Below, piece by piece: positions 4,408-38,777 of a stretch of 38,777 nt of DNA. The stretch comes from Thermodesulfobacteriota bacterium (lineage in GTDB: Bacteria > Desulfobacterota > Desulfobacteria > Desulfobacterales > SURF-7). Position 1 is the first letter of the stretch. Each line of letters opens with the position of its first letter. The stretch lies in contig JBMORA010000066.1 of NCBI GenBank assembly GCA_049320885.1, positions 1 to 38,777 of the forward strand. The letters run 5' to 3'. The notes under the pieces are model-generated. The model did no database searches. It was not told the DNA's origin and saw only the letters and a program-made list of their open reading frames with translations. Made by a program: the position numbers and the translations under genes.

Positions 4408-6504
4408 TCAAACCTCTTTCTTTTTTTCCACCCGACACAACAGGGCCTTGATGGGCACCGAGGCGGTCACGGGGCACAGGGGCTGATCATCGGTGATGAT
4501 ATTGATATTAAGCGTTTCCCAGCCGTCTTTCTCGCCGTACCAGTACCCGTGCGGGGCATGGACCACGCCGGGATGAATATGGCGGTCGAAGGACGTCTTG
4601 ATGTCCACCCGGCCCCGCGGGGACCGAAGATCCACCCATTCCCCGTCCCCAATGCCCAGGGCCGCGGCCGTATCCGGATGAATCTGGAGCAGGGGGTCGG
4701 GAGAGCGTTTTTTAAGGGAAGGGATATTCCGGTGGGAGGAATGGTAGAACACGATGTTCCGTGCCCCTGTTGTCAGAATCAATGGATAATCGGCCAGCAG
4801 ATCGGGGCGGCTCACCGGACTTTCACCGGGCTCGCGGAACACGGGGAGGGGGGAAATCCCCAGGGCGTTCAAATACTCCGCGTAGAGTTCCACCTTGCCC
4901 GACGGCGTCTTGAAGCGGCCTTTCTTCTCGTGGGTTTTATAAGTCAGGGGGGTGGCATAAAACCCCATGGTCTTGAACCGTTCAAAGGTGAGGCCAATGG
5001 GCTCGAGGCGGTGATCCAGGGCCTCTTCCACGGTGGTGAAATACCCGGTGAGGTTCATTTTCCCGGCCAGGTCGATCAGGATCTGCTTTTCGTCCCGGCA
5101 GTCCGGCAGCGGCGCCACGCATCTGATCTGGCAGAATACATGATTTTTCATGAGCAGGTCCTCCACGTCGTCCCGTTCGGACCAGTGGGCCGGGGGCAGG
5201 ATAATATCCGCGAGCTCCGTAGTGGGGGTATGAAAATAATCCACGGCAAAGAGAAAATCCACGGCAGAAAGTACCTTGTGCACCCGCCGGGAATTGGGGT
5301 AGGCGCAGACACTGTTGTTGGCGAAAAGTCCCAGGGCCTTCACCGGATAGGGTCTGCCTTCCTCGATGGCCGGCCAAACGGTCTGGGGCGGGCAGGGAAT
5401 GGGAATGAACTCCAGCAGGGGATAAGTGTCGAGCCCCAGTTTTTTCTTGGCTGTCTCGGGAGGAAGGCTGGCCGCCGGGCTGTAGTCCGGTCCGTAGCAG
5501 CTCCGGCGTTTTGTCGGCGGATGGCAATGGAGATTGCCGCCGGCCACGTCCAAATTTCCCGTAATGGCGGAGAGGATGGTGAGGGCGCGGGCCAGGTCGA
5601 ACGCGTCGTTGGCCTGACAGACCCCGCCCATGCCCGGACCGATACAGGCCGGACCATTACCGGCAAAGCAGGCCGCCGCCGCCTCGATTGTTTCCGCCGG
5701 TATCCAGGTGATCGCGGAGCAGCGTTCCGGCGTGAATTCCGCCACATGGGTTTTCAATCGATCGAACCCGCTGGTCCAGCGCTCCACGAAATCCCGGTCG
5801 TACAGGTTTTTTTCCAGGATCACATGGAGGAACCCAAGGGCCAGGGCTACGTCCGTCCCCGGGCGGATCTGGAGGAAATGGTCGGCCTTGTGGGCGAAGC
5901 GGGTGCGCCGGGGGTCCACCACGATGAGCTTCGATCCGTTTTTCAGACCTTCATTGATGTCGTGAAGGTACAACCCGGCCCAGGACGCCTCGGGATTGTG
6001 CGCCCAGAGAAGCATGCACCGGCTCCGGGCGTAATCCGGGTCCACCAGGGTGAAGCCGCAGGTGGCGCCGCTGCCCACCACGATGGGACCGCCGCTCATG
6101 TTGGACGGGGCCATGAAATTCGGCGAGCCGAACCGGAAAAGAAAATAATTGAGATAGGGCGCCAGGCCCCGGGTGGTTCCCGAGCCCAGCACCACCGATT
6201 CCGCGCCCCAGCGTTCCCGGCAGTCGAGCAGCCGCTCGCCGATCCTTTCCAGGGCCTGATCCCAGGAAACGGCTTCCAGCGCACCGCTCTTGCCGCGTCT
6301 GTTTCTGGCAAGAGGCTGCCGGATCCGGTCCGGATGGTACACCATCTCCGTCAGTGCCCGGCCTTTGGGACAGATGAACCCATGGCTGAACGGATGATCC
6401 TTGTCGCCCGTGATCCCCGTGATCTTGCCGCCCGCCACGGTCACCAGCACACCACAACGGGAATGGCATTCAAAACAAATGGTTCTAATGGTTGTCGCCT
6501 TCAT
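4408..6504 (-). CDS. Mo/W-bisPGD (DMSO reductase superfamily) oxidoreductase, acetylene-hydratase-like clade, cytoplasmic
   Basis: N-terminal 4Fe-4S motif CFECHSRC...CPKG, SWDQAL, VDPRRT, IRPGTD, PYPVKA, TPTTELADIILP, TPSGKVEL, C-terminal HPDTA...SPRG domain. No Tat signal. Confidence 0.9.
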   Translation of the reverse strand: MKATTIRTICFECHSRCGVLVTVAGGKITGITGDKDHPFSHGFICPKGRALTEMVYHPDRIRQPLARNRRGKSGALEAVSWDQALERIGERLLDCRERWGAESVVLGSGTTRGLAPYLNYFLFRFGSPNFMAPSNMSGGPIVVGSGATCGFTLVDPDYARSRCMLLWAHNPEASWAGLYLHDINEGLKNGSKLIVVDPRRTRFAHKADHFLQIRPGTDVALALGFLHVILEKNLYDRDFVERWTSGFDRLKTHVAEFTPERCSAITWIPAETIEAAAACFAGNGPACIGPGMGGVCQANDAFDLARALTILSAITGNLDVAGGNLHCHPPTKRRSCYGPDYSPAASLPPETAKKKLGLDTYPLLEFIPIPCPPQTVWPAIEEGRPYPVKALGLFANNSVCAYPNSRRVHKVLSAVDFLFAVDYFHTPTTELADIILPPAHWSERDDVEDLLMKNHVFCQIRCVAPLPDCRDEKQILIDLAGKMNLTGYFTTVEEALDHRLEPIGLTFERFKTMGFYATPLTYKTHEKKGRFKTPSGKVELYAEYLNALGISPLPVFREPGESPVSRPDLLADYPLILTTGARNIVFYHSSHRNIPSLKKRSPDPLLQIHPDTAAALGIGDGEWVDLRSPRGRVDIKTSFDRHIHPGVVHAPHGYWYGEKDGWETLNINIITDDQPLCPVTASVPIKALLCRVEKKKEV

Positions 6505-6538
6505 GCCGCCTCCGGCCCGGTCTCTGCAGGCCCCCCTA

Positions 6539-6600
6539 AATTATAAACAATAAATCTTTTTTGTTTGAACAATATTGATTTATTGTTTAAACAATGTCAA
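6539..6600 (-). promoter_or_regulatory. Sigma70 promoter for the Mo-enzyme operon overlapped by three phased GntR-type operators
   Basis: Minus strand TTGACA (6600-6595), 17 bp, CAATAT (6577-6572). Palindromes TTGTTTAAACAA (6583-6594), TTGTTTGAACAA (6561-6572) and AATTATAAACAA (6539-6550) at 22-bp spacing. Confidence 0.7.
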
Positions 6601-6659
6601 GATAAAATGCAAGCTTGACGCAATGAGGGTTTTGGTTGTTTACAGGTACAGGACCTGAC

Positions 6660-7424
6660 ATGAAAAAAAACTCCCCATCGGTACAGGAAATTGTCGATCA
6701 GCTGCTCCGGCAGATTTACCGGAAGCAACTCCAACCGGACGAAAAACTCCCCCCCCTCCGCAGCCATGCCGAGGATCTCGGGGTGGAACCGGCCGCCCTC
6801 CGGTCCGCGCTGAAGCAACTGGAAACCATGAATCTCCTGGACATCCGGCGAAGCGACGGGACGTATGTCAAGCCCTTCCCGCGCCATGCCGGACTCGATT
6901 TTCTGGCCCGGCTTTTCGCCATCAATGAGCCGCCGGGCGATGAGGGGCTGGTGGACGAATTTCTGGTGGACGAGACCCTGGCCTTCTGGAACATGGTCTT
7001 CCCGGAAATCATGTACGCGGCCAGCCGGAATATGTCGCCCCTGGATGTGAAAGCCTTCATCGACATCATCGATCGTCAGATCCGGGACGTGGATATCATC
7101 GCAACCCTTGTCGCCCTGGACATTGAGCTCCAGGACCGCATCGCCGAACGGGCCAACAACATCGTGGTCACCCTGCTGTTCAATTCCCTGACCCCCCTGC
7201 GTCACAGACTCACGGATTATTTTTACCGGAAGCTGGACCGCGGCACCCGCCTCCACTTCCTTTCCATGAAAAAAAAGGGCCTCTGCCGCCAGATGAGCGG
7301 GAATCTGGATCTCAAATGGTCGGCGGAAGAGCACCGGAAGGCCCTTGAATCTTACCGGGAAGCCATCCGCCAGGCAACGATGCACCATATGATGCAACAA
7401 ATCACCGGGGAGGAGAAAAGTTGA
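6660..7424 (+). CDS. GntR/FadR-family transcriptional regulator
   Basis: N-terminal wHTH LQPDEKLPPLRSHAEDLGV...LRSALKQLE...GTYV and a helical FCD-like C-terminus. Divergent from the Mo-enzyme operon; ATG at 6660. Confidence 0.88.
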   Translation: MKKNSPSVQEIVDQLLRQIYRKQLQPDEKLPPLRSHAEDLGVEPAALRSALKQLETMNLLDIRRSDGTYVKPFPRHAGLDFLARLFAINEPPGDEGLVDEFLVDETLAFWNMVFPEIMYAASRNMSPLDVKAFIDIIDRQIRDVDIIATLVALDIELQDRIAERANNIVVTLLFNSLTPLRHRLTDYFYRKLDRGTRLHFLSMKKKGLCRQMSGNLDLKWSAEEHRKALESYREAIRQATMHHMMQQITGEEKS

Positions 7425-7448
7425 CATTCACCGGTTTTATGCTATCAA
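7421..7448 (+). promoter_or_regulatory. Putative sigma70 promoter
   Basis: TTGACA 7421-7426, 16 bp, TGc-TATCAA extended -10 at 7443-7448, upstream of the 7513 gene. Confidence 0.45.
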
Positions 7449-7512
7449 TTTGGTCAGCGCTTCGGCGCCGGGGCGGGACGGAATATCCAACCAACCTTTC
7501 GGGAGAAACTGC

Positions 7513-8220
7513 ATGCAGAACAATGACAACCGCTGCACCCTTGTGATTCCGGTCATCATCCTGGGCCTTCTGCTGGGCTTCTTCCCGACGAATGAAGTCG
7601 CGGAGGCGGAACCCGAGTGGAATGTCGAAATCTCCGGCAGCCAAAAGGGCATTGACGGATTTCATGTCTCCGTGGGCGATCACTATAAAACCCCGGCAAC
7701 GGAGGTAGTGGTCATCCGGGAACGCGGCATCGCCGATGAAGAGCTGCCGGTGGTCTATTTCCTTTCACAAAGAGCCCGGGTGGCGCCCGGAGTGATCGTG
7801 GACATGCGTCTCAAGGGAATGAGCTGGATGGACATTACCGTCCATTTCGGGTTTGGGCCTGAAATGTATTATGTCCCCGTGACCGTCATCGAAGATCACC
7901 AGCCCCGCGGACATGCTTACGGCTATTATAAAAAGCACAAGAAAAAAAAGGATTGGAAGAAAATACACCTGAAAGACGCGGATATCATCAATCAGGTGAA
8001 CCTGCGCTTCCTGTCCGAACACTACCACTGCCCGCCGGAGCAGGTGATCCGTTATCGTTCCGAAGGCCGGAATTTCCGGATGATCGACCATGATTTCAAA
8101 ACTTCGGAACACCACCCGCCAAAAGATCAATCCGGAAAGCCGGACGACCATGGCAATGCCCCTGGAAAGAAAAACAAGGAAAAGCATGCGGCCAAGGAGT
8201 CCAAGCACGGAAAAAAATAA
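7513..8220 (+). CDS. Exported hypothetical protein with Lys/His-rich low-complexity segments
   Basis: ATG at 7513, hydrophobic signal-like stretch LVIPVIILGLLLGFF...AEA, GHAYGYYKKHKKKK motif and a His/Lys-rich tail. Confidence 0.7.
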   Translation: MQNNDNRCTLVIPVIILGLLLGFFPTNEVAEAEPEWNVEISGSQKGIDGFHVSVGDHYKTPATEVVVIRERGIADEELPVVYFLSQRARVAPGVIVDMRLKGMSWMDITVHFGFGPEMYYVPVTVIEDHQPRGHAYGYYKKHKKKKDWKKIHLKDADIINQVNLRFLSEHYHCPPEQVIRYRSEGRNFRMIDHDFKTSEHHPPKDQSGKPDDHGNAPGKKNKEKHAAKESKHGKK

Positions 8221-8295
8221 CCGCCCGGCCACCGGATTTTAAAGTACACGGTAGCGCCGGAAAGACCATGTAAAAGTATTCGTTTTCATGCTTGC

Positions 8296-8353
8296 GACTT
8301 TTTCGGAGAAAAATCCGAAAAAGTCTTGACTTTTTCGGAGCGGATGCCAGAAT
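8296..8353 (+). promoter_or_regulatory. Promoter with three alternating 12-bp repeats (operator) before the AAA ATPase gene
   Basis: GACTTTTTCGGA (8296-8307), its reverse complement (8314-8325), and GACTTTTTCGGA again (8328-8339). These overlap -35 TTGACT (8326-8331); extended -10 TGc-CAGAAT at 8345-8353. Confidence 0.7.
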
Positions 8354-8360
8354 GGTCGAC

Positions 8361-9491
8361 ATGGAGCGCGCCCTCGCCAAACCGATTCTGGACGATCTGA
8401 CGAAAAAAATCATTCTGATCACAGGCCCCCGGCAGACCGGCAAGACAACCTTGGCCAAAATGCTGTCCGACCGGTACGATTATCTGAATTACGATAATGC
8501 CGACCATCGGATTCACTTGCTGAGAAAAACATGGGATCGCGCCCGGGATGTGATCATTTTCGACGAGCTCCATAAACTCAAGAACTGGAAATCCTGGCTG
8601 AAGGGCATCTTCGACACCGAAGGGATTCCACCGGCGCTGGTTGTAACCGGAAGCGCCAAACTCGATACGGCGCGCAAGGTCGGGGATTCGCTGGCCGGCC
8701 GTTTTTTTCAATTTCGGCTCCACCCCCTGGATCTGAAAGAAATCAGGGTATCCCTGCATTCCGACAACCCTGCCGCCGACCTGGATGCCTTATTGAATCT
8801 CGGCGGATTTCCGGAACCGTTTCTGAACGGCACGGAACGCTTTTACCATCGCTGGAAAAAAAGCCACCTGGATATCATTTTAAAGCAGGATCTGCCGGAA
8901 ATGGAAAATGTGCAGCAGATCCTGGCCGTGGAAACGCTGATCCAGCTTCTGAAAAGGAATGTAGGGACTCCGGTTTCCTACAGCTCCCTTGCCAGGGATC
9001 TGCAGTGCTCCGATAAAACCATCAAGCGCTGGCTGACGATCCTTGAAAACATGTATGTGGTTTTCCGGGTGCCGCCGTATCATAAAAACATCGCCCGGGC
9101 CATCCTGAAATCCCCCAAATACTATTTTTACGACAACGGCCAGGTGGATGGGGACCCGGGTGCAAAGCTGGAGAATCTGGTGGCCTGCGCCCTTCACAAG
9201 GAAATTCACTTTCAAGCGGATTGCCTTGGGGAAGACCTGAAACTCCATTATCTGCGCAACAAGGATGGTCGGGAAATCGATTTTCTGGTGACCCGCGGGG
9301 GAGTTTCCAGCCTCATGATCGAAGCGAAATGGCGCGAGGAGCAGCTTAGTCCCAATTTTTCCATTTTTGAAAAGAATCTGGCCAAGCCGAGGAAAATCCA
9401 GCTCGTCAAGGAACTGAGCCGGGAAAAAACCTACCCGGACGGCGGCGAAGTGCGAAGGGCGTGCGACTGGCTGGCCCGGCTGCCCCTATAA
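8361..9491 (+). CDS. AAA_14 ATPase with C-terminal DUF4143 (PD-(D/E)XK-like) domain
   Basis: Walker A GPRQTGKTT, Walker B IIFDELH, TGS, SLAGR, GGFPE, internal HTH (SLARDLQCSDKTIKRW), PKYYFYD, EIDF...IEAK. Confidence 0.9.
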   Translation: MERALAKPILDDLTKKIILITGPRQTGKTTLAKMLSDRYDYLNYDNADHRIHLLRKTWDRARDVIIFDELHKLKNWKSWLKGIFDTEGIPPALVVTGSAKLDTARKVGDSLAGRFFQFRLHPLDLKEIRVSLHSDNPAADLDALLNLGGFPEPFLNGTERFYHRWKKSHLDIILKQDLPEMENVQQILAVETLIQLLKRNVGTPVSYSSLARDLQCSDKTIKRWLTILENMYVVFRVPPYHKNIARAILKSPKYYFYDNGQVDGDPGAKLENLVACALHKEIHFQADCLGEDLKLHYLRNKDGREIDFLVTRGGVSSLMIEAKWREEQLSPNFSIFEKNLAKPRKIQLVKELSREKTYPDGGEVRRACDWLARLPL

Positions 9492-9628
9492 CCATCCGAA
9501 CGGATCGGTCCTTGCCCGTAAACCGCCCGGCATGGTATGGTGACGGCAATGGAAATGCTTGGCGTCTCGCGGTCCAGGCGACGCTTCCATTGACTTCATA
9601 ACCTCCTGCATGAAACCGGAGATTCCCG

Positions 9629-11470
9629 TTGGGTTATCACAATTTACGGCATTGTCTGGCGGATCTGGAAGCCGGGAAACAGCTGATCCGCATCCATGAG
9701 GAAGTCGATCCCTTTCTCGAAGTCGGCGCCGTCCAGCGCCGGGTGTTCCGGCACAAGGGGCCGGCGCTCCTGTTCACCAATGTCAAAAACTGCGCCTTTC
9801 CCATGGTGGGCAACCTGTTCGGCACCCTGGAGCGCATGCGGTATATTTTCCGGGACAGCCTGCGGGACATTGAGGCGTTGGTCAAGCTGAAGGTCGATCC
9901 CGCCGGCTTTATGAAATCCCCCCTGAAGTTCGCCCGCATCCCCAAGGCCTTGTTGAGCGCCCTGCCCCAAAAAACGATCGACGGCCCGATCTTGAAGCGC
10001 AAGACCGTCATCTCCGCCCTGCCCCGGCTGACCTCATGGCCCCTGGACGGCGGCAGCTACGTCACCCTGCCCCAGGTCTATTCCGAAAGCCTCCTCCGGC
10101 CGGGATTCGCCGGTTCCAACCTGGGCATGTACCGGATCCAGCTTACGGGGAATCAGTACGCCATGGATCGGGAAGTGGGCCTGCATTACCAGATCCACCG
10201 CGGCATCGGACCGCATCATGCCGAGGCCATCCGCGCGGGTCGACCGCTGCCGGTCAACATCTTCGTAGGCGGTCCTCCGGCCATGACCCTGGCGGCGGTG
10301 ATGCCCCTGCCGGAAGGCCTGCCGGAAATTTTTTTCGCTGGCATGCTGGCGGGCCGCCGCCTGAAATGGATCGTCAGGCCCGGCATGCTGCCCGTTCCGG
10401 CCGAAGCGGATTTCTGCATCTGCGGCGATGTGGACCTCCTTCGCCAGCTCCCGGAAGGTCCTTTCGGCGATCATCTCGGGTATTACAGTTTAAGCCACGA
10501 TTTCCCCGTACTGAGGGTCCGGGAGGTCTTTCATCGCCCCGACGCCGTCTGGCCCTTTACCACCGTGGGCCGGCCGCCCCAGGAAGACACGGTATTCGGG
10601 GAATTCATCCATGAACTGACCGGTCCCCTGGTGCCCACGGTTTTCACCGGCGTCCATGAAGTCCACGCCGTGGACGCTTCCGGCGTACATCCCCTGCTGC
10701 TGGCCATCGGCAGTGAGCGCTATGTGCCCTATGCCGCGGACCGGCGGCCCCAGGAAATCATCACCTGCGGCCTGTCCCTTTTGGGCAGCACCCAGACCGC
10801 TCTTTCCAAATATGTATGGATTGGCGCCCGGGAAGACGCCCCGCATCTATCCACCAAAAACATCCCCGATTTTTTCCGGCATATGCTGGAGCGGACGGAC
10901 TGGGAAAACGATCTCCATTTCATCACCCGCACCACCATGGACACCCTGGATTATTCCGGCATCAACCTGAACCAGGGCTCCAAAGTGATTCTGGCCGTCG
11001 CCGGCCCCCAGCGAAGAACCCTCGGGACGGACCTGCCGCCGGGACTCTCGCTGCCGACAGGCTTCCGAAATCCGGTGCTCTTTTCCCCCGGCATCCTGGT
11101 CATCGAAGGCCCGCGCCACCAACTGGCCAGGGACCGCCGGGATCCGGAACTGACCCGTCTCGGTGAGGAACTCCTGCCCCGCGCCGGCCTGAACCATTTT
11201 CCCTTGATGGTCGTCACGGATGATCCGGCCTTCACCGCCCGATCCTGGGAAAATTTCCTCTGGGTGACCTTCACCCGCTCGGATCCGGCCACGGACATCT
11301 ACGGCGTGGATGAGTTCACCCACTGCAAGCACTGGGGCTGCCGGGGTCCCCTGATCATTGACGCGCGGTTGAAAACCTACCACGCGCCGCCCCTTGTACC
11401 CGATCCGGAAGTGGAAAAACGGGTGGACGCCCTGGGAGCGCCGGGGAAGGTCTTGCACGGCATCATATAG
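9629..11470 (+). CDS. UbiD-family (prFMN-dependent) decarboxylase, long type, possibly menaquinone pathway
   Basis: GPALLF, NLFGT, WPLDGG, NLGMYRIQ, EGPFGDH catalytic motif, TVGRPPQED, DTLDYSG. TTG start. Confidence 0.9.
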   Translation: MGYHNLRHCLADLEAGKQLIRIHEEVDPFLEVGAVQRRVFRHKGPALLFTNVKNCAFPMVGNLFGTLERMRYIFRDSLRDIEALVKLKVDPAGFMKSPLKFARIPKALLSALPQKTIDGPILKRKTVISALPRLTSWPLDGGSYVTLPQVYSESLLRPGFAGSNLGMYRIQLTGNQYAMDREVGLHYQIHRGIGPHHAEAIRAGRPLPVNIFVGGPPAMTLAAVMPLPEGLPEIFFAGMLAGRRLKWIVRPGMLPVPAEADFCICGDVDLLRQLPEGPFGDHLGYYSLSHDFPVLRVREVFHRPDAVWPFTTVGRPPQEDTVFGEFIHELTGPLVPTVFTGVHEVHAVDASGVHPLLLAIGSERYVPYAADRRPQEIITCGLSLLGSTQTALSKYVWIGAREDAPHLSTKNIPDFFRHMLERTDWENDLHFITRTTMDTLDYSGINLNQGSKVILAVAGPQRRTLGTDLPPGLSLPTGFRNPVLFSPGILVIEGPRHQLARDRRDPELTRLGEELLPRAGLNHFPLMVVTDDPAFTARSWENFLWVTFTRSDPATDIYGVDEFTHCKHWGCRGPLIIDARLKTYHAPPLVPDPEVEKRVDALGAPGKVLHGII

Positions 11471-34377: not shown

Positions 34378-34464
34378 GGAGAGGTGGCCGAGAGGCTGAA
34401 GGCGTCGCTCTCGAAAAGCGGAATCCTGGCAACGGGATCGTGGGTTCGAATCCCACCCTCTCCG
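34378..34464 (+). tRNA. tRNA-Ser (anticodon CGA), long variable arm, CCA not encoded
   Basis: GGAGAGG acceptor pairs with CCTCTCC, followed by discriminator G. Anticodon arm TCGCT-CTCGAAA-AGCGG, variable arm ATCCTG-GCAA-CGGGAT, T arm GTGGG-TTCGAAT-CCCAC. TTGACA at 34321. Confidence 0.95.
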
Positions 34465-34548
34465 CTCTATAACTCCCCGAAATCACACAATAAAAACCAA
34501 TTCCTGAATCAAAACAAACACAAGCTTGCAGGCAATTGATATGATTGC

Positions 34549-34689
34549 CAATTTTAGTCCATGTCGTTTGTGAGCAAATTGTGAGCAAATTTCCCAAGTA
34601 AGTTACCCCTTCATTGTGGCCAGAAACAGCCTTTGGCTTGGTATGAATATTGCTGTCTACAATTTTTAGCATGTCGTTTGTGAACAATT
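34549..34689 (+). repeat. Integrase arm-type-like direct repeats
   Basis: Tandem TTGTGAGCAAA x2 (34568-34589). CATGTCGTTTGTGA at 34560-34573 and 34670-34683, 110 bp apart. Confidence 0.65.
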
Positions 34690-34725
34690 CGAGAACCCAG
34701 GCAGCTAAATATTAACCTGTTTAAC

Positions 34726-35236
34726 TCATTGTAAATATGATTGTAATTTCATATATACAAGTATTCCAGGATATTAGGAAAATGCAATTTTTATTCGCAA
34801 TGATAATAAGTAAGTACATGCTTATGGCACAAAAAACATGTGTTTTTGTTAGAGCTGAAGTGAATAATCATTATGTGAGGGGCAGAAAACGACACGAAAG
34901 TGCATCTGTCCCCCCAGCAGGCAATAGGCAAACTCGATCAAGCCTATCGACAGCGGGTTTATCCGACCGTCGGGATCGTTGAGCCCTGGGATAGTGTGAG
35001 AGCATGTTGAAATCATTGCGAAATATGATGGCAGATTTCATATATGTAATCATTTCATAGAACTAAGAAAATGCAATTTTTATTCGCAATGAAATTAAGT
35101 AAGTACATGCTTATGGTATAAAAAACAGGTGTTCTTGTTAGGGGCTTAGGGTAATAATCATTATGTGAGGGGCAGAAAACGACACGAAAGTGCATCTGTC
35201 CCCCCAGCAGGCAATAGACAAACCCGACCAAGCATA
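34726..35236 (+). repeat. Diverged duplication of a ~220-bp non-coding unit (period ~290 bp) with an identical 65-bp core
   Basis: Copy 1 ~34726-34945, copy 2 ~35013-35236. Identical AATAATCA...GCAATAG at 34863-34927 and 35153-35217. Confidence 0.9.
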
Positions 35237-35258
35237 GCTTGTGTTGGGTGTTTTTTTT
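35222..35258 (+). terminator. Intrinsic terminator closing repeat copy 2
   Basis: ACCCGAC-CAAGC-ATA-GCTTG-T-GTTGGGT-G followed by T8. Confidence 0.7.
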
Positions 35259-35302
35259 GGTTGAATCAATAATAACTATCTGGTTAAAATGGAGAAAATG
35301 AC

Positions 35303-35506
35303 ATGAATGGACAAGCCAAATTAACAACATCCATCGCCTTCCGACCGTCTTTTCAGGATCGACTGGACTCGACAGCAGGAAAATACGGGGTTTCACGCTC
35401 CCAGCTAATAACCCAAGTATTAAGCGTTGTATTGGATCGTCTTGAACAACCGGGAAAATGGATTCAATTTTCACGAAATGACTTTGAACGCACTTTAACG
35501 CTTTAG
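35303..35506 (+). CDS. Ribbon-helix-helix (CopG-like) DNA-binding protein
   Basis: TTSIAF (beta strand), DRLDSTAGKYGVSRSQLI (helix-turn-helix part of RHH); GGAG RBS. Confidence 0.75.
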   Translation: MNGQAKLTTSIAFRPSFQDRLDSTAGKYGVSRSQLITQVLSVVLDRLEQPGKWIQFSRNDFERTLTL

Positions 35507-35753
35507 TCCTATCTAAAATCCCAAGATTATTCTCTAAAAACCCTGGATCAGTGCCAACATTGAGGAAAGCCCGACACAGCTTGCCTCAATGAGTATTGAA
35601 TTTCAAGGGTAACATCGTGTCTCTATCTTTCTGCAACACAAGGTGAAATATGGGGAATGTTAGAGCTATATCCATCAAACGAAAGACAATATGACGAAAC
35701 ATAACAGCATCATACAAGATAAAGGGGGTGATTATACGAAATGAAGGAGCAGG

Positions 35754-36206
35754 ATGACCAATCAAGACAAACTGAGATTCACGATGGCCGAATGGCTGGC
35801 AAAGTACCCATGGACACACTGGGCGCATCTGCGGTTCAATCATGACAGGATATCCGGCGAACAAGCGGAGAAATGCTTGAAGGGATGGCGGTTGAAGCTG
35901 ATCAAACGTGAGCGGTTACAGGTTGCCACATTTGGGATAATAAACCACCGCCCTACCAGCCACCTTCACATCTTGCTTATGGGTATCAACCGGCAGGGTA
36001 AAACCCTGGACGATGTCGAAGACGGCAACTGGAAGGTTTACGCAAGACTCTGGCCGGGCAGTGCCGTTATTGATCCTATCAAAGATAAGGGGGCGATAGA
36101 ATATATGGCCTTTGCGAATACCCCAGCAGGACATTATGAACTACTCATGCCCTACAATACAAAGCTACTGGCAAGGTCATTCTCCAAAGCGCCAGTAATC
36201 CATTAA
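35754..36206 (+). CDS. Small HUH endonuclease, rolling-circle Rep-like
   Basis: Motif I-like WTHWAHLRF, motif II HLHILL, W.G...I.PI.D, and motif III-like GAIEYMA. AAGGAG RBS. Confidence 0.7.
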   Translation: MTNQDKLRFTMAEWLAKYPWTHWAHLRFNHDRISGEQAEKCLKGWRLKLIKRERLQVATFGIINHRPTSHLHILLMGINRQGKTLDDVEDGNWKVYARLWPGSAVIDPIKDKGAIEYMAFANTPAGHYELLMPYNTKLLARSFSKAPVIH

Positions 36207-36265
36207 CGTCTGGTTGCAGCGATTGCAAAACGCAACCAGCACAATGAAAGGAAAATCACAGAACA

Positions 36266-36745
36266 ATGGCAAGACCGTGTAAATTAAATCAAACCATCCA
36301 GGATTCAATTGTGGAAGCCATCGAAGATGGACTCACCTACAAGCAGGCCGCTCAGATCGTCGGCGTTGATGAAACAACCTTCCAGCGATGGAAACGGAAA
36401 GGAAAGGAAGCGATCTCCGGCAAATATCACCAATTTTACCAGGCCATAAAAACGGCGAATGTAAAAGCCCGGTATATCCTTCTGGAGCGTATCCGCCAGG
36501 CTGGAGAGGGAAAGCAGATCATCGAGACCACCAGCGAAGTCCTTGACGCTGGGGGAAAAGTGATCCGACGAATTGTCGTCAGGAAGGAGCATCCCCCAGC
36601 TTGGCAGGCGTTGGCATGGATTCTTGAGCGACGATTCCCGGATGAATTTGGACGAAAGGCGAAACCAGAACCAGTCGAGGAACATGACCCATTGCAGGAG
36701 TGGGTTGATGCCCTGGTGGCGGCTGAATCAATTCAACAACAATAA
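36266..36745 (+). CDS. Phage terminase small subunit-like HTH protein
   Basis: MARPCKLN...GLTYKQAAQIVGVDETTFQRW HTH and C-terminal WQALAWILERRFPDEFGRK, a pattern I recognise from phage TerS-like proteins. Confidence 0.7.
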   Translation: MARPCKLNQTIQDSIVEAIEDGLTYKQAAQIVGVDETTFQRWKRKGKEAISGKYHQFYQAIKTANVKARYILLERIRQAGEGKQIIETTSEVLDAGGKVIRRIVVRKEHPPAWQALAWILERRFPDEFGRKAKPEPVEEHDPLQEWVDALVAAESIQQQ

Positions 36746-36760
36746 GGAGAACACAACACG

Positions 36761-37420
36761 ATGAACATCAAAGATTTGAAACGCATTGAAAAACTGGCAA
36801 ACAACCTGAGACAGACCGTCCCAGCCTCACACACGGACGCTTTTCGAATTTACCAAGCGCCAGGTGAAATTTCCGATGCTATTGATGCCGCCATTGAGCT
36901 GGCGAAACTCGATGCCGTTAAGGAATACATCGAATCAAAGCCTGACGGCAGCCGTGATACCGCATCCCTTTCAAAAATGCAGAGTCAGCGCACTCTGTAC
37001 GCACGTCGCGTTGAGGCCGCCAGCGAACTGGAAAAGAAGCTGGTCGGTATCGCTATCGATTTTCAGATTGAACAGGAAGCAAGGGCGGCCGGGGCGATCA
37101 ACCACAAGCTTGTGGCAATGTGCCTGAAGGGGAAAAATGTCCTGGAGCATTCCGTTGATTCGGATGGGAATTTAAGCATATTCGTGGATGGCTTACCGGC
37201 AAAAGATGCCGTAAAAGCCCTCACACTGAGCCAGGACACGAGAATTTTGTTCGATAGTGATAGGCCCATCAACAAGCCCGGCAGTTCTCGGCCATTCGAT
37301 GGGAAAAATCCGTGGTTGAAGGAAACTTTCAACCTCACCCAGCAAGGCATTATTTGGAAACAAGACCGAGCCCTTGGTGAAAGGCTGAAAGCCGCTGCAA
37401 AGGCCGCACAGACCGTTTAA
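36761..37420 (+). CDS. Phage capsid scaffolding protein-like (GP20/DUF4355-type)
   Basis: Helical N-terminus, AGAIN...DG...GL..DAVKAL...LF core, and C-terminal KNPWLKETFNLTQQG...LKAAA motif typical of scaffolds. AAGGAG RBS. Confidence 0.65.
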   Translation: MNIKDLKRIEKLANNLRQTVPASHTDAFRIYQAPGEISDAIDAAIELAKLDAVKEYIESKPDGSRDTASLSKMQSQRTLYARRVEAASELEKKLVGIAIDFQIEQEARAAGAINHKLVAMCLKGKNVLEHSVDSDGNLSIFVDGLPAKDAVKALTLSQDTRILFDSDRPINKPGSSRPFDGKNPWLKETFNLTQQGIIWKQDRALGERLKAAAKAAQTV

Positions 37421-37443
37421 CATCATAATTAGGAGGTTTACTT

Positions 37444-37692
37444 ATGGAACAAGATAGTTTGAATTGGGAAGATGATTATCGGAATAAATTGAATTGGGAA
37501 AAGGTTAAGGAAATTCGGAAAATGTATAAGGAAAGCAAAGGCGGTTATAAAAAGCTGGCAGAAAATTTTGGCGTCTCGGTAAAAACGATCAGAACGATAG
37601 TTCGAGGCGAGTCATCAAAGGTGCAGGCTGAGAAAGATTGCTCTTATTGTAGACCATTGTGGATGAATATACTTGGGGAAAGAAACAAATAA
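37444..37692 (+). CDS. Small HTH DNA-binding protein (paralog 1)
   Basis: LNWEKVKEIRKMY...GYKKLAENFGVSVKTIRTIVRG; AGGAGG RBS. Confidence 0.75.
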   Translation: MEQDSLNWEDDYRNKLNWEKVKEIRKMYKESKGGYKKLAENFGVSVKTIRTIVRGESSKVQAEKDCSYCRPLWMNILGERNK

Positions 37693-37719
37693 TCCGCACC
37701 ATAAAGAAGATGCTGAGAA

Positions 37720-37749
37720 CCATTAAGGGGCTTTACAGCCCCTTAATGG
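37720..37749. repeat. Perfect 13-bp inverted repeat between the HTH paralogs
   Basis: CCATTAAGGGGCT-TTAC-AGCCCCTTAATGG. Confidence 0.85.
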
Positions 37750-37767
37750 GACAACAGGAGACCACTC

Positions 37768-37932
37768 ATGGAACCAAAGAAAATGACCTGGGAAAAGGTT
37801 GATGAAATTCGGAAAATGTACCGGGACGGCGTTGGCGGCTATAAGGTAGTTGCAAGGAAATTCGGCGTGTCGGCAACAATGATCAGATTGATAGTCCTTG
37901 GCAAATCATGGAAAGAAGCGAATCGGGTTTAG
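37768..37932 (+). CDS. Small HTH DNA-binding protein (paralog 2), 54 aa, absent from the ORF track
   Basis: CAGGAG RBS. Translates MEPKKMTWEKVDEIRKMYRDGVGGYKVVARKFGVSATMIRLIVLGKSWKEANRV, a clear paralog of 37444-37692. Confidence 0.8.
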   Translation: MEPKKMTWEKVDEIRKMYRDGVGGYKVVARKFGVSATMIRLIVLGKSWKEANRV

Positions 37933-38400: not shown

Positions 38401-38650
38401 ATGAATATTAGAACGTTACACTGCGGAAAGTCCGTAAAGAACTACCAGCTTTGTATTGAAAAGATGGTGGCTGGGTTCACAAGACGAGGTCCGGAAAAAG
38501 GTGACCTTATTTACCTTTGCATCAGACAGAGCAGAAGAACGTTTTGCACTGCACGCTTCTATTTAGATGAAGTAACCAGTGAAAAACCCTGGCCAGACGC
38601 AGACCGCTATGTAATAGCTTTCTCCACGCGAGATATAGAATATTGCCAAC
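38401..38650 (+). pseudogene. 5' part of a gene (EVE/PUA-like N-terminal domain) interrupted by an IS21-family element
   Basis: About 83 codons (NYQLC...VAGF...EKGDLIYL...PWPD..RY), then the frame runs into IS terminal repeats at 38651. Confidence 0.55.
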
Positions 38651-38777
38651 TGCGTATTCCGTTCCATTGTGACCACCGATTCCGTTTTATTGTGACCAGT
38701 CATTCCGCTGCATTGTGACCACCGATTCCGCTCATTGTGACCACGTAAAAAGAGCCCTTCAAAGCGACGCTGGATAA
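38651..38777 (+). mobile_element. IS21-family insertion sequence end
   Basis: Starts TGCGTATTCC. Four ~23-bp tandem repeats ATTCCG-n4-ATTGTGACCA at 38656, 38679, 38702 and 38725, then AGCGACGCTGG; located at the window edge. Confidence 0.85.

Follow-up and report, generated by a model that had tools for sequence, protein, structure and literature searches.

The window, i.e. the whole analysed stretch of 38,777 nt, ends within an integrative element that has defined borders in the tRNA-Ser(CGA) gene. An earlier note on this DNA described the tRNA gene, a shift to AT-rich sequence and six co-oriented ORFs, all of which were recovered at the same positions. The stretch 34465..37932 given there does contain the gene run, but 37932 is not the end of the element, which continues to an IS at 38651 and past it for another 3.7 kb on contig C42 of genome G000. 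On that contig lie genes for a serine resolvase and a tyrosine integrase as well as a copy of the tRNA 3' end; the integrase and the tRNA duplicate had both been predicted to lie beyond the IS. The features of the two arms are the following.

34378..34465, + strand: tRNA-Ser(CGA), the integration target (ARAGORN, Rfam)
34442..34465, + strand: attL core, 24 bp, equal to the tRNA 3' end
34568..34687, + strand: three 10-bp direct repeats by attL; two further copies beside attR (C42:3753 and 3764)
34746..35236, + strand: non-coding tandem duplication, period ~290 bp, 85% identical
35303..35506, + strand: RHH (CopG-like) regulator, 67 aa, weak profile matches
35558..35591, + strand: hairpin 5' of the HUH gene, −10.9 kcal/mol as DNA, an energy without shuffled-sequence comparison
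35754..36206, + strand: single-domain HUH endonuclease, 150 aa, with H70, H72 and Y117 (probable, from homologues, motif and fold)
36266..36745, + strand: terminase small subunit (TerS), phrog_4102 family, 159 aa (phrog_4102, E 4e-24)
36761..37420, + strand: capsid-scaffold-related protein, 219 aa
37444..37692, + strand: HTH protein copy 1, 82 aa
37720..37749, no strand: perfect 13-bp inverted repeat between the HTH genes
37768..37932, + strand: HTH protein copy 2, 54 aa
38401..38650, + strand: 5' part of a cargo gene interrupted by the IS (remainder at C42:135-1130)
38651..38777, + strand: IS left end; the opposite end begins contig C42
C42:1402-2046: serine resolvase
C42:2081-2503: 140-aa protein without assigned function
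C42:2612-3709: tyrosine integrase (PF00589, E 4.5e-17; phrog_1, E 2e-38)
C42:3829-3852: attR, exact second copy of the 24-bp core (tRNA-Ser(CGA) 3'-end copy)

Without the IS the element measures 7.9 kb, and the 24-bp att core has two copies in the entire genome. GC content drops from ~0.60 to 0.39–0.51 directly 3' of the tRNA gene, with 44.5% for the island versus 55.8% for the whole genome. The 9-mer common to the 10-bp repeats occurs 14 times in the genome, including 4 times at the element's two ends, and the repeats are probable candidates for integrase arm-type sites. Among four relatives with a located tRNA (G001, whose tRNA-Ser(CGA) site was not located, was left out), the site is empty in three, with 185–328 bp to the next tRNA-Ser, and holds 2.3 kb with integrase scraps in the fourth. 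The element is rare and patchy among relatives, and 151-bp pieces identical to it were found in a sediment sequencing run from another study. Members of the integrase family are also used by larger, prophage-like elements inserted at this tRNA site (L309); none of the loci of the nearest integrases (L308–L310) has the HUH-TerS-scaffold module.

The six + strand ORFs of the window arm are separated by gaps of 247, 59, 15, 23, and 75 bp, respectively. Since the longest stop-to-stop frame has 224 codons and the gaps are short, this arm conceals no TerL, portal or capsid gene, in agreement with what had been reported for the island ORFs. Both arms lack TerL, portal, capsid and primase genes; every long frame in them is assigned, none to a primase or helicase. 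Profile matches of the RHH gene are weak (RHH_4, E 0.13; CopG-like phrog_7325, E 0.015), and its product is 35% identical to that of the gene upstream of TerS in another island, L003. The two HTH genes share 72% DNA identity across 133 nt. HTH matches of all three regulators are weak and sub-threshold, with no AlpA or MerR among the matches listed. Regarding non-coding features, the tandem duplication is a candidate origin or promoter region and the hairpin a candidate nick-site hairpin, while promoter-like sites are at chance level (8 versus 8.3 expected). Once the IS is removed, the cargo halves rejoin into a single 415-codon frame; PADLOC gave no credible match for the cargo or other island genes. 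The IS, whose ends we take to be IS21-like, is flanked on both sides by an identical 5-bp target duplication, and no transposase was seen.

As for the HUH protein, it has no Pfam or NCBIfam match and its PHROG matches are at chance level. A full HMMER scan returned 187 homologues at E ≤ 0.001; without exception, the closest of them (14/14) and those in a further alignment (20/20) carry H70, H72 and Y117. A His-hydrophobic-His motif and a downstream catalytic Tyr thus lie on a HUH fold, as in the REP_ORF2-G2P family, whose cut-off (PF23343) is passed by the relatives L318 and L319, with L082, L083 and L317 below it. The structure model (pLDDT 95) finds rudivirus ORF119 as its best fold match; 7 of the 8 top rows are Rep or NS1 nickase domains, and the best comparison reaches Z 7.7 and rmsd 3.2 with 103 aligned. 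The nearest Atlas clusters are also Reps (features 0.96, TM 0.74). Judged by homologues, motif and predicted fold, the protein is probably related to the REP_ORF2-G2P family and a rolling-circle initiator. Its relatives mostly lie in tRNA islands with integrase and resolvase and without packaging genes (e.g. L082 and L317). A word-indexed homologue search recovered the query alone, the alignments either gave no pattern that could be used or led to no confirmed locus in genome or viral contigs, and tblastn gave no match at E ≤ 1 in plasmid and phage collections.

The profile match of the next gene strongly suggests a real TerS family member. Among 36 viral loci scanned, the longest ORF downstream of a phrog_4102-family TerS is TerL (23) or portal (10) in 33. 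In the TerS tree, a quick tree with many long branches, the island TerS proteins group with TerS of the phage contig L148 in a single clade (SH-aLRT 97).

The same phage contig also offers a comparison for the scaffold-like protein, which is 29% identical to the L148 scaffold (phrog_206) across 119 columns (pairwise E 1e-7). It also matches the scaffold of L172, and both phage scaffold genes directly precede the major capsid gene. The homology covers the C-terminal half; the N-terminal helices are common only with the copy on another contig, L092. Against PF06810 the protein scores 16.8 bits, under the Pfam cut-off of 35; 10 of 16 weak tblastn records bear a scaffold name; structural matches stay below TM 0.55, with none at E ≤ 0.001 in Foldseek against the PDB; and a word-indexed search recovered the query alone. 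A predicted complex of residues 100–219 with the L148 capsid protein scores 0.38 versus 0.00 for the best control, a score to be read against a mark that 116 of 157 solved pairs and 2 of 215 mismatched pairs reach, with values of 0.60 or less among those reaching it belonging to only 18 solved pairs but to both mismatches. At least 96% of the contacts recur between runs, the partner pLDDT is 61–63, and a pairing of the two proteins is weakly supported. Several weak but agreeing lines support a scaffold-related product, the weakest of the HUH, TerS and scaffold calls. The labels of the earlier note fare accordingly in order: TerS is strong (phrog_4102), HUH holds by homologues, motif and fold, scaffold holds though below cut-off, and RHH is weak.

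The gene order recurs on L092, an unrelated metagenome contig, as HUH, a 148-codon unknown, TerS (43%) and scaffold (48%), without TerL, portal or capsid between them. L092 is 2.9 kb long without a visible integrase or att site, and no origin sequence common to it and the window was found. The nearest HUH homologue (P0003, 57%) and a close TerS homologue (P0155, 67%) each lie on a 16,787-bp JGI contig, probably the same one. Only two full HUH-TerS-scaffold examples are known. The scaffold was not found by pattern search in 185,579 species genomes, nor in IMG/VR or 400 class genomes; 360 order genomes gave a single weak match, within a 610-codon frame. A clear TerS-like neighbour was present at 1 of 13 other genomic HUH loci (L083), and island L003 combines RHH, TerS and resolvase but lacks HUH and scaffold; the modules thus appear loosely coupled. 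The 80 resolvase-anchored loci added one new HUH locus (L229) and zero TerS-scaffold pairs. The findings that the earlier note had named as fatal to its proposal did not materialise: the folds are supported, the trio recurs and no head genes intervene.

Regarding a helper, genome G000 (98% complete) showed no TerL, portal or capsid gene with the queries used, so a resident helper was not identified; two phrog_2 matches in it were rejected, both being partial and the better one a helicase-type AAA domain. Amplification was not seen in the probable source run, where depth is 16.6–18.1 for the island contig versus 21.7 for the flank, a comparison made from contigs, which cannot reveal rare circles. 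No excised circle or particle was seen either.

We consider it probable that the island is a helper-dependent PICI-like satellite with SaPI-type packaging, i.e. its own TerS and a competing internal scaffold, in which an HUH Rep replaces the primase-helicase. As far as the sequence indicates, it most likely travels in, and reshapes, helper phage particles. During helper phage growth the tyrosine integrase would excise the element at the 24-bp core, and the HUH protein would nick an origin, probably in the 0.8-kb non-coding stretch before the RHH gene or at the hairpin before the HUH gene. Rolling-circle copying would then be carried out by host helicase and polymerase; the RHH protein would keep Rep in check, and the resolvase would turn multimers back into monomers. 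The island TerS would bind its own DNA and recruit helper TerL, while the scaffold-like protein would bind the helper major capsid protein via its conserved C-terminal motif, compete with the helper scaffold and alter or block procapsid assembly in the fashion of CpmB or Rcm. Since the island TerS and the C-terminal half of the scaffold resemble proteins of L148, a candidate helper would be a phage with phrog_4102 TerS, phrog_206 scaffold and phrog_247 capsid, as on that contig. Rolling-circle Reps usually yield monomer circles, however, and TerL packages concatemers, which counts against the satellite reading.

The same genes could instead belong to an integrative rolling-circle element in which TerS and scaffold are retained only as phage-interference (defence) proteins jamming packaging and head assembly, and which is itself poorly packaged. 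Purifying selection on the two genes fits this equally well, the HUH family is mostly found without packaging genes, and neither helper nor amplification was seen. TerS, however, has its complete length including an undamaged N-terminal HTH, and in both examples its gene comes after the Rep gene in the same orientation, a self-packaging layout. Moreover, an element without conjugation genes needs a vehicle; this one is rare and patchy in relatives, and identical pieces occur in another study's sediment run. A purely defensive role is unlikely.

Decay of a prophage, or a chance mosaic, would leave a head module stripped of TerL, portal and capsid beside an unrelated HUH island. Both TerS and scaffold have relatives in a single phage head module (L148), the integrase family serves prophage-like elements at this tRNA site, and the island contains a gene broken by the IS as well as two internal duplications. 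Prophage debris is disfavoured, however, because the HUH-TerS-scaffold order, including the TerS-scaffold junction, recurs in L092 at dN/dS ~0.2 (dN 0.46–0.54, dS 2.3–2.5 for TerS and scaffold, i.e. synonymous sites near saturation). In addition, the two scaffold copies have ~90 N-terminal residues in common that are unmatched in phage scaffolds, the 15-bp TerS-scaffold junction has a ribosome-binding-like sequence and no TerL or portal scraps, and both att ends and the integrase reading frame are undamaged. Already weakened by L092, this account is improbable.

HUH folds are common to Reps, relaxases and TnpA, and a Tyr after the HUH motif is the order typical of Reps. That the protein is a relaxase or transposase, in an element mobilised by a conjugative helper or replicated by helper-phage proteins, would fit the ISDra2 transposase fold match (E 0.057), the missing Rep profile match and the relaxosome-like placing of RHH beside HUH (BfmA-like match, E 0.17), but is the most improbable account given the Tyr C-terminal to the motif, the Reps among nearest folds and Atlas clusters, the L318 relative at the Rep position heading a filamentous-prophage-like (inovirus-like) run with a Zot-family gene, the L082 relative matching a replication-initiation PHROG, and an island without a coupling or mobilisation gene.

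Compared with PICIs as SatelliteFinder defines them in the available text of PMC10085698, the helper-dependent satellite proposed here has a small terminase, an integrase (on C42, with the att duplicate) and no tail, holin, portal or head-tail genes. Its scaffold-related protein is a candidate for the capsid-morphogenesis role, which may include size redirection; the primase-replicase module is absent, with the HUH protein in its place. The same text lists a PICI variant in which terS precedes the capsid gene and no primase-replicase has been identified. According to the accessible parts of the SaPI literature, type-1 SaPIs, such as SaPI1 with its CpmAB and TerS (PMC6893505), and PICIs are likewise chromosomal elements of ~8–10 kb with integrase, own TerS and cargo, without capsid, portal, TerL, tail or lysis genes, and with a helical scaffold-like protein that has a C-terminal motif in common with the helper scaffold. 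As for its form, Rcm of SaPIpT1028 (PMC12409344) is, like the island scaffold, one larger helical protein, and no CpmA-like partner was seen in the island. The island differs from these elements, so described, in its HUH Rep, in having an RHH and two small HTH proteins instead of an AlpA, MerR or Stl match, in its serine resolvase, in an integrase placed last, beyond the cargo and in the same orientation as every other gene, in a 219-aa scaffold still recognisable as a phage-scaffold homologue, and in a probably Desulfobacterales-type host (from named relatives of integrase, resolvase and TerS).

Other satellites share single traits. cf-PICIs have their own capsid, portal and TerL, for which neither island arm has an ORF. 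Tycheposons (bioRxiv 10.1101/2020.12.28.424599) and VEIMEs (PMC9618062), in their main texts, combine a tyrosine integrase with an optional small serine recombinase and terS at a tRNA site without capsid, as here. The tycheposon primase/helicase/polymerase module is absent from the island, and the main texts name primases, helicases, polymerases or RepA/ParA rather than HUH Reps, although supplementary datasets may differ. Some VEIMEs carry replication genes of a plasmid-like kind and are packaged in concatemeric form, but no capsid scaffold is named for either group, the word being missing from the VEIME main text (PMC9618062), and PICI-like tycheposons, according to the text available, were never seen with cargo, which the island carries. 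PICMI, as presented in the available part of PMC10803314, resembles it in minimal size (6 kb), integrase and helper-packaged rolling-circle-type concatemers (for the island, packaging is presumed), and differs in its fis site, AlpA, primase and lack of terS or a capsid-remodelling gene, in contrast to tRNA-Ser, TerS and no primase here. PLE of Vibrio cholerae, compared by description (bioRxiv 10.1101/2024.04.22.590561, in part), also depends on helper TerL and has a scaffold, TcaP, and packaging-redirect proteins; TcaP is external, however, and PLE relies on RepA and on pac mimicry with Gpi/GpsAB. SRCE satellites of haloarchaeal spindle-shaped viruses follow the same principle of a rolling-circle Rep with an incomplete virion module, but, in the available text, are archaeal and plasmid-like and carry a spindle-virus capsid protein or ATPase rather than tailed-phage TerS and scaffold (bioRxiv 10.1101/2025.02.15.638363).

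The proposal of a new satellite class is not supported by this comparison, since TerS plus an internal scaffold without capsid, portal and TerL is already the SaPI type-1 module in the accessible text of its sources (CpmB, PMC6893505; Rcm, PMC12409344). Of the combination called unfamiliar, the packaging kit is known, whereas no HUH-Rep satellite with TerS and scaffold was found in the literature searched, which held few subscription journals and no supplements. The part without a published precedent in that search is an HUH Rep as the replicon of such a satellite.

Somewhat short of an even chance, in our view, is the fuller proposal that the island is the first representative of a satellite family not yet described, from anaerobic sediment or biofilm bacteria. 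In this scenario a rolling-circle replicon driven by a minimal, single-domain HUH Rep would have acquired TerS and scaffold from a phage with a phrog_247 capsid and remodelled the N-terminal half of the scaffold into a size-switch, so that the heads are small and suit a genome of 8 kb. The CpmB/Rcm strategy would then have arisen independently on another kind of replicon. If the satellite reading is true, it raises the question of how an HUH Rep supplies the concatemers of TerL, and detectors based on primase-replicases would miss such satellites or score them incomplete. It would also provide a capsid size-switch whose phage-scaffold ancestry is still legible in sequence, with a candidate helper capsid at hand, and would show that a rolling-circle replicon can be combined with the satellite packaging kit of TerS and competing scaffold.

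As an earlier note had described, AT-rich DNA follows tRNA-Ser(CGA) in the window, which spans its contig (C66) from end to end: the tRNA ends at 34465, GC content falls immediately after it, and all six ORFs are in place. These are separated by intergenic gaps of 15-247 bp, and a frame check of the window arm gives no frame longer than 224 codons, so no large gene is hidden there. A genome-wide BLAST with the island as query shows that the IS that closes the window contig has its opposite end at the opening of contig C42, and an exact repeat of the tRNA's final 24 bases lies at C42:3829-3852. Both the integrase and the tRNA 3'-end duplicate that had been predicted past the IS are present on C42. 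The main genes of the two arms are as follows:

35754-36206, + strand: HUH gene
36266-36745, + strand: terminase small subunit (TerS)
36761-37420, + strand: scaffold-like gene
C42, beyond the IS: serine resolvase (PF00239, E 1e-28)
C42, between resolvase and integrase: unknown, 140 aa
C42, ahead of attR: tyrosine integrase (PF00589, E 5e-17)

The IS is flanked on either side by identical five bases, the gene that it splits forms a single 415-codon frame when rejoined, and without the IS the island measures 7,905 bp (44.5% GC). This cargo gene (window 38401-38650 plus L001:135-1130, on C42) has no family match in Pfam, NCBIfam, or PADLOC; relatives annotated as hypothetical, at 37% identity, occur on two Clostridium botulinum plasmids.

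The DUF1015 gene, tRNA-Ser(CGA), tRNA-Ser(GGA), and dnaX are contiguous in 3 of the 5 relatives searched, another has a 2.3-kb remnant at the tRNA-Ser(CGA) site, and in one this tRNA was not found; this confirms the contig join and the insertion site. The 10-base direct repeats close to both att sites are probably integrase arm sites. Since the attL tRNA has no encoded CCA end (window 34462-34468) and CA stands directly after the attR copy, the encoded CCA seems to have been replaced upon insertion. At the same tRNA-Ser site in a genome of the same genus (G002), L336:1700-3957 is an AT-richer stretch of 2.3 kb containing integrase fragments, and at L309 a related integrase lies within a larger prophage-like element ahead of tRNA-Ser(GGA)-dnaX. 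On the basis of these two loci, the site is an integration hotspot.

The HUH protein has no matching family in Pfam or NCBIfam. A full scan gave 187 homologues, most of 130-200 aa; H70, H72, and Y117 are invariant among the 14 closest, and Y134 is nearly invariant among 60. The structure model (pLDDT 95) matches rudivirus ORF119 first and Rep and NS1 nickase domains next, with a best Z of 7.7, middling alone, and 7 of the 8 top rows of the Rep/nickase kind. In the Atlas, the protein adjoins PF23343 (REP_ORF2-G2P). The family occurs in 7/401 genomes of the order and 6/401 of the phylum, the island's own genome included. In other genomes, an integrase stands at a tRNA beside the HUH gene in 6 of 13 loci (two integrases read by eye), 4 of them with an att duplicate, and one locus (L318) has the gene in the Rep position of a filamentous-prophage-like run. 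Homologues, conserved residues, fold matches, Atlas placement, and loci therefore make Rep the likeliest role. The L318 run (5628-9719) comprises HUH, 107-aa, 63-aa, 475-aa, 101-aa, and Zot-family products, its Rep belonging to the island's HUH family. Two att-bounded tRNA islands, L317:8599-15554 and L082:3394-9899 (6.9 kb and 6.5 kb, respectively), carry HUH, integrase, a resolvase-like gene, and unknown ORFs, with no packaging gene recognised.

As for TerS, it matches phrog_4102 (E 4e-24). The viral TerS scan retained 80 loci, 77 with a downstream ORF suitable for testing; 36 of these ORFs were scanned, excluding phage contig L148 (scanned separately), loci that looked like near-copies, and everything beyond L200, and gave 23 TerL, 10 portal, 1 methyltransferase, and 2 without assignment. 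L148 holds the nearest viral relative (49%), in the order TerS, TerL, portal, holin-like, scaffold, major capsid. A quick 49-row tree places in one clade (SH-aLRT 97) the window TerS, four metagenome TerS, and those of metagenome contig L092, L003, and L148. L003:1967-18411 is a Desulfosarcina island, its ends not found, with integrase, ASCH-like gene, and cargo and without scaffold; its TerS is sister to that of L148, its RHH and resolvase are 35% and 62% identical to the island's, respectively, and a 185-aa unknown occupies the HUH place. A 16.7-kb tRNA-Met island (L083:6791-17072 with L322:8566) has an integrase, HUH of the island's family, cargo, a 58% identical resolvase, and a TerS-like gene of a different family (phrog_1889, E 7e-10).

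The scaffold-like protein matches PF06810 under the cut-off, its Atlas neighbours are viral clusters, some called scaffold, and scaffold is named in 10 of 16 weak tblastn records, SPP1 gene 11 among them. Residues 106-209 match the L148 scaffold (E 1e-7), and a two-row profile matches the scaffolds of L148 and L172, both directly 5' of a capsid gene. A C-terminal NPW-x(5)-NLT-x-QG motif is common to the island, L092, L148, and L172, and for the N-terminal ~90 residues the L092 copy is the sole match. The model combines a long helix with a small alpha/beta domain and a flexible tail. Co-folded with the L148 capsid protein, residues 100-219 scored 0.38 versus 0.00 for the best control, which is weak support, as passes at ~0.38 are oftener wrong than right unless the pairing is likely a priori.

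The trio recurs in L092, 1 of at least 56 metagenome TerS loci, in the island's order and strand: HUH, a 148-codon ORF without Pfam match, TerS, scaffold. Identities to the island are 32% (HUH, over 104 columns), 43% (TerS), and 48% (scaffold), with dN near 0.5 and dS of 2.3-2.5. Against recurrence, the scaffold was found in no other collection searched, and L092 is not long enough for element ends to be visible. The closest HUH relative (P0003) and a close TerS relative (P0155) are each on a single 16,787-bp JGI contig, probably a third, putative example. The element is real, bounded, and recurrent. In L092, 21-bp tandem repeats (1-115) lie 5' of HUH and 17-bp repeats (2817-2930) lie 3' of scaffold, both possible iterons.

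The island is complete only in the probable source run, at a depth (16.6-18.1) slightly below that of the flank (21.7); a sediment run from a separate study has two identical 151-bp island pieces. The search of the island's genome for head genes of a helper was negative. We favour, with reasonable confidence, a PICI-like satellite whose mobility, excision, replication, and packaging are predicted. The island would be excised by its integrase and replicated by a rolling circle initiated by the HUH protein; its TerS would direct helper TerL to the island's use, and its scaffold would compete at the helper capsid. Interference with the helper without self-packaging is a rather unlikely reading. 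Prophage debris is very improbable, and a non-Rep role of the HUH protein slightly more so.

The satellite reading was compared with parts of published works (PMC10085698, PMC6893505, PMC12409344, PMC10803314, PMC9618062) and preprints (bioRxiv 2024.04.22.590561, 2025.02.15.638363, 2025.08.03.668216, 2020.12.28.424599). Literature searches turned up no satellite of tailed phages that combines an HUH Rep with TerS and scaffold; satellites with rolling-circle Reps are described for archaeal spindle-shaped viruses (bioRxiv 2025.02.15.638363). Judged by its genes, the packaging module would operate like that of type-1 SaPIs as presented there. By the same sources, the island lacks the primase-replicase that serves as a PICI criterion yet would work like a PICI, and it is therefore not filed as a member.

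The 69 genome loci of the island's TerS family belong mostly to about six Methanosarcinaceae MAGs, several with at least 8 copies; the observation covers L004-L071 and, from the metagenome loci, part of L093-L147. Across 22 loci compared by eye, primase- or polymerase-like genes and small HTHs recur upstream, and no TerL-sized gene recurs. Possibly, these archaea carry many small TerS-bearing elements.
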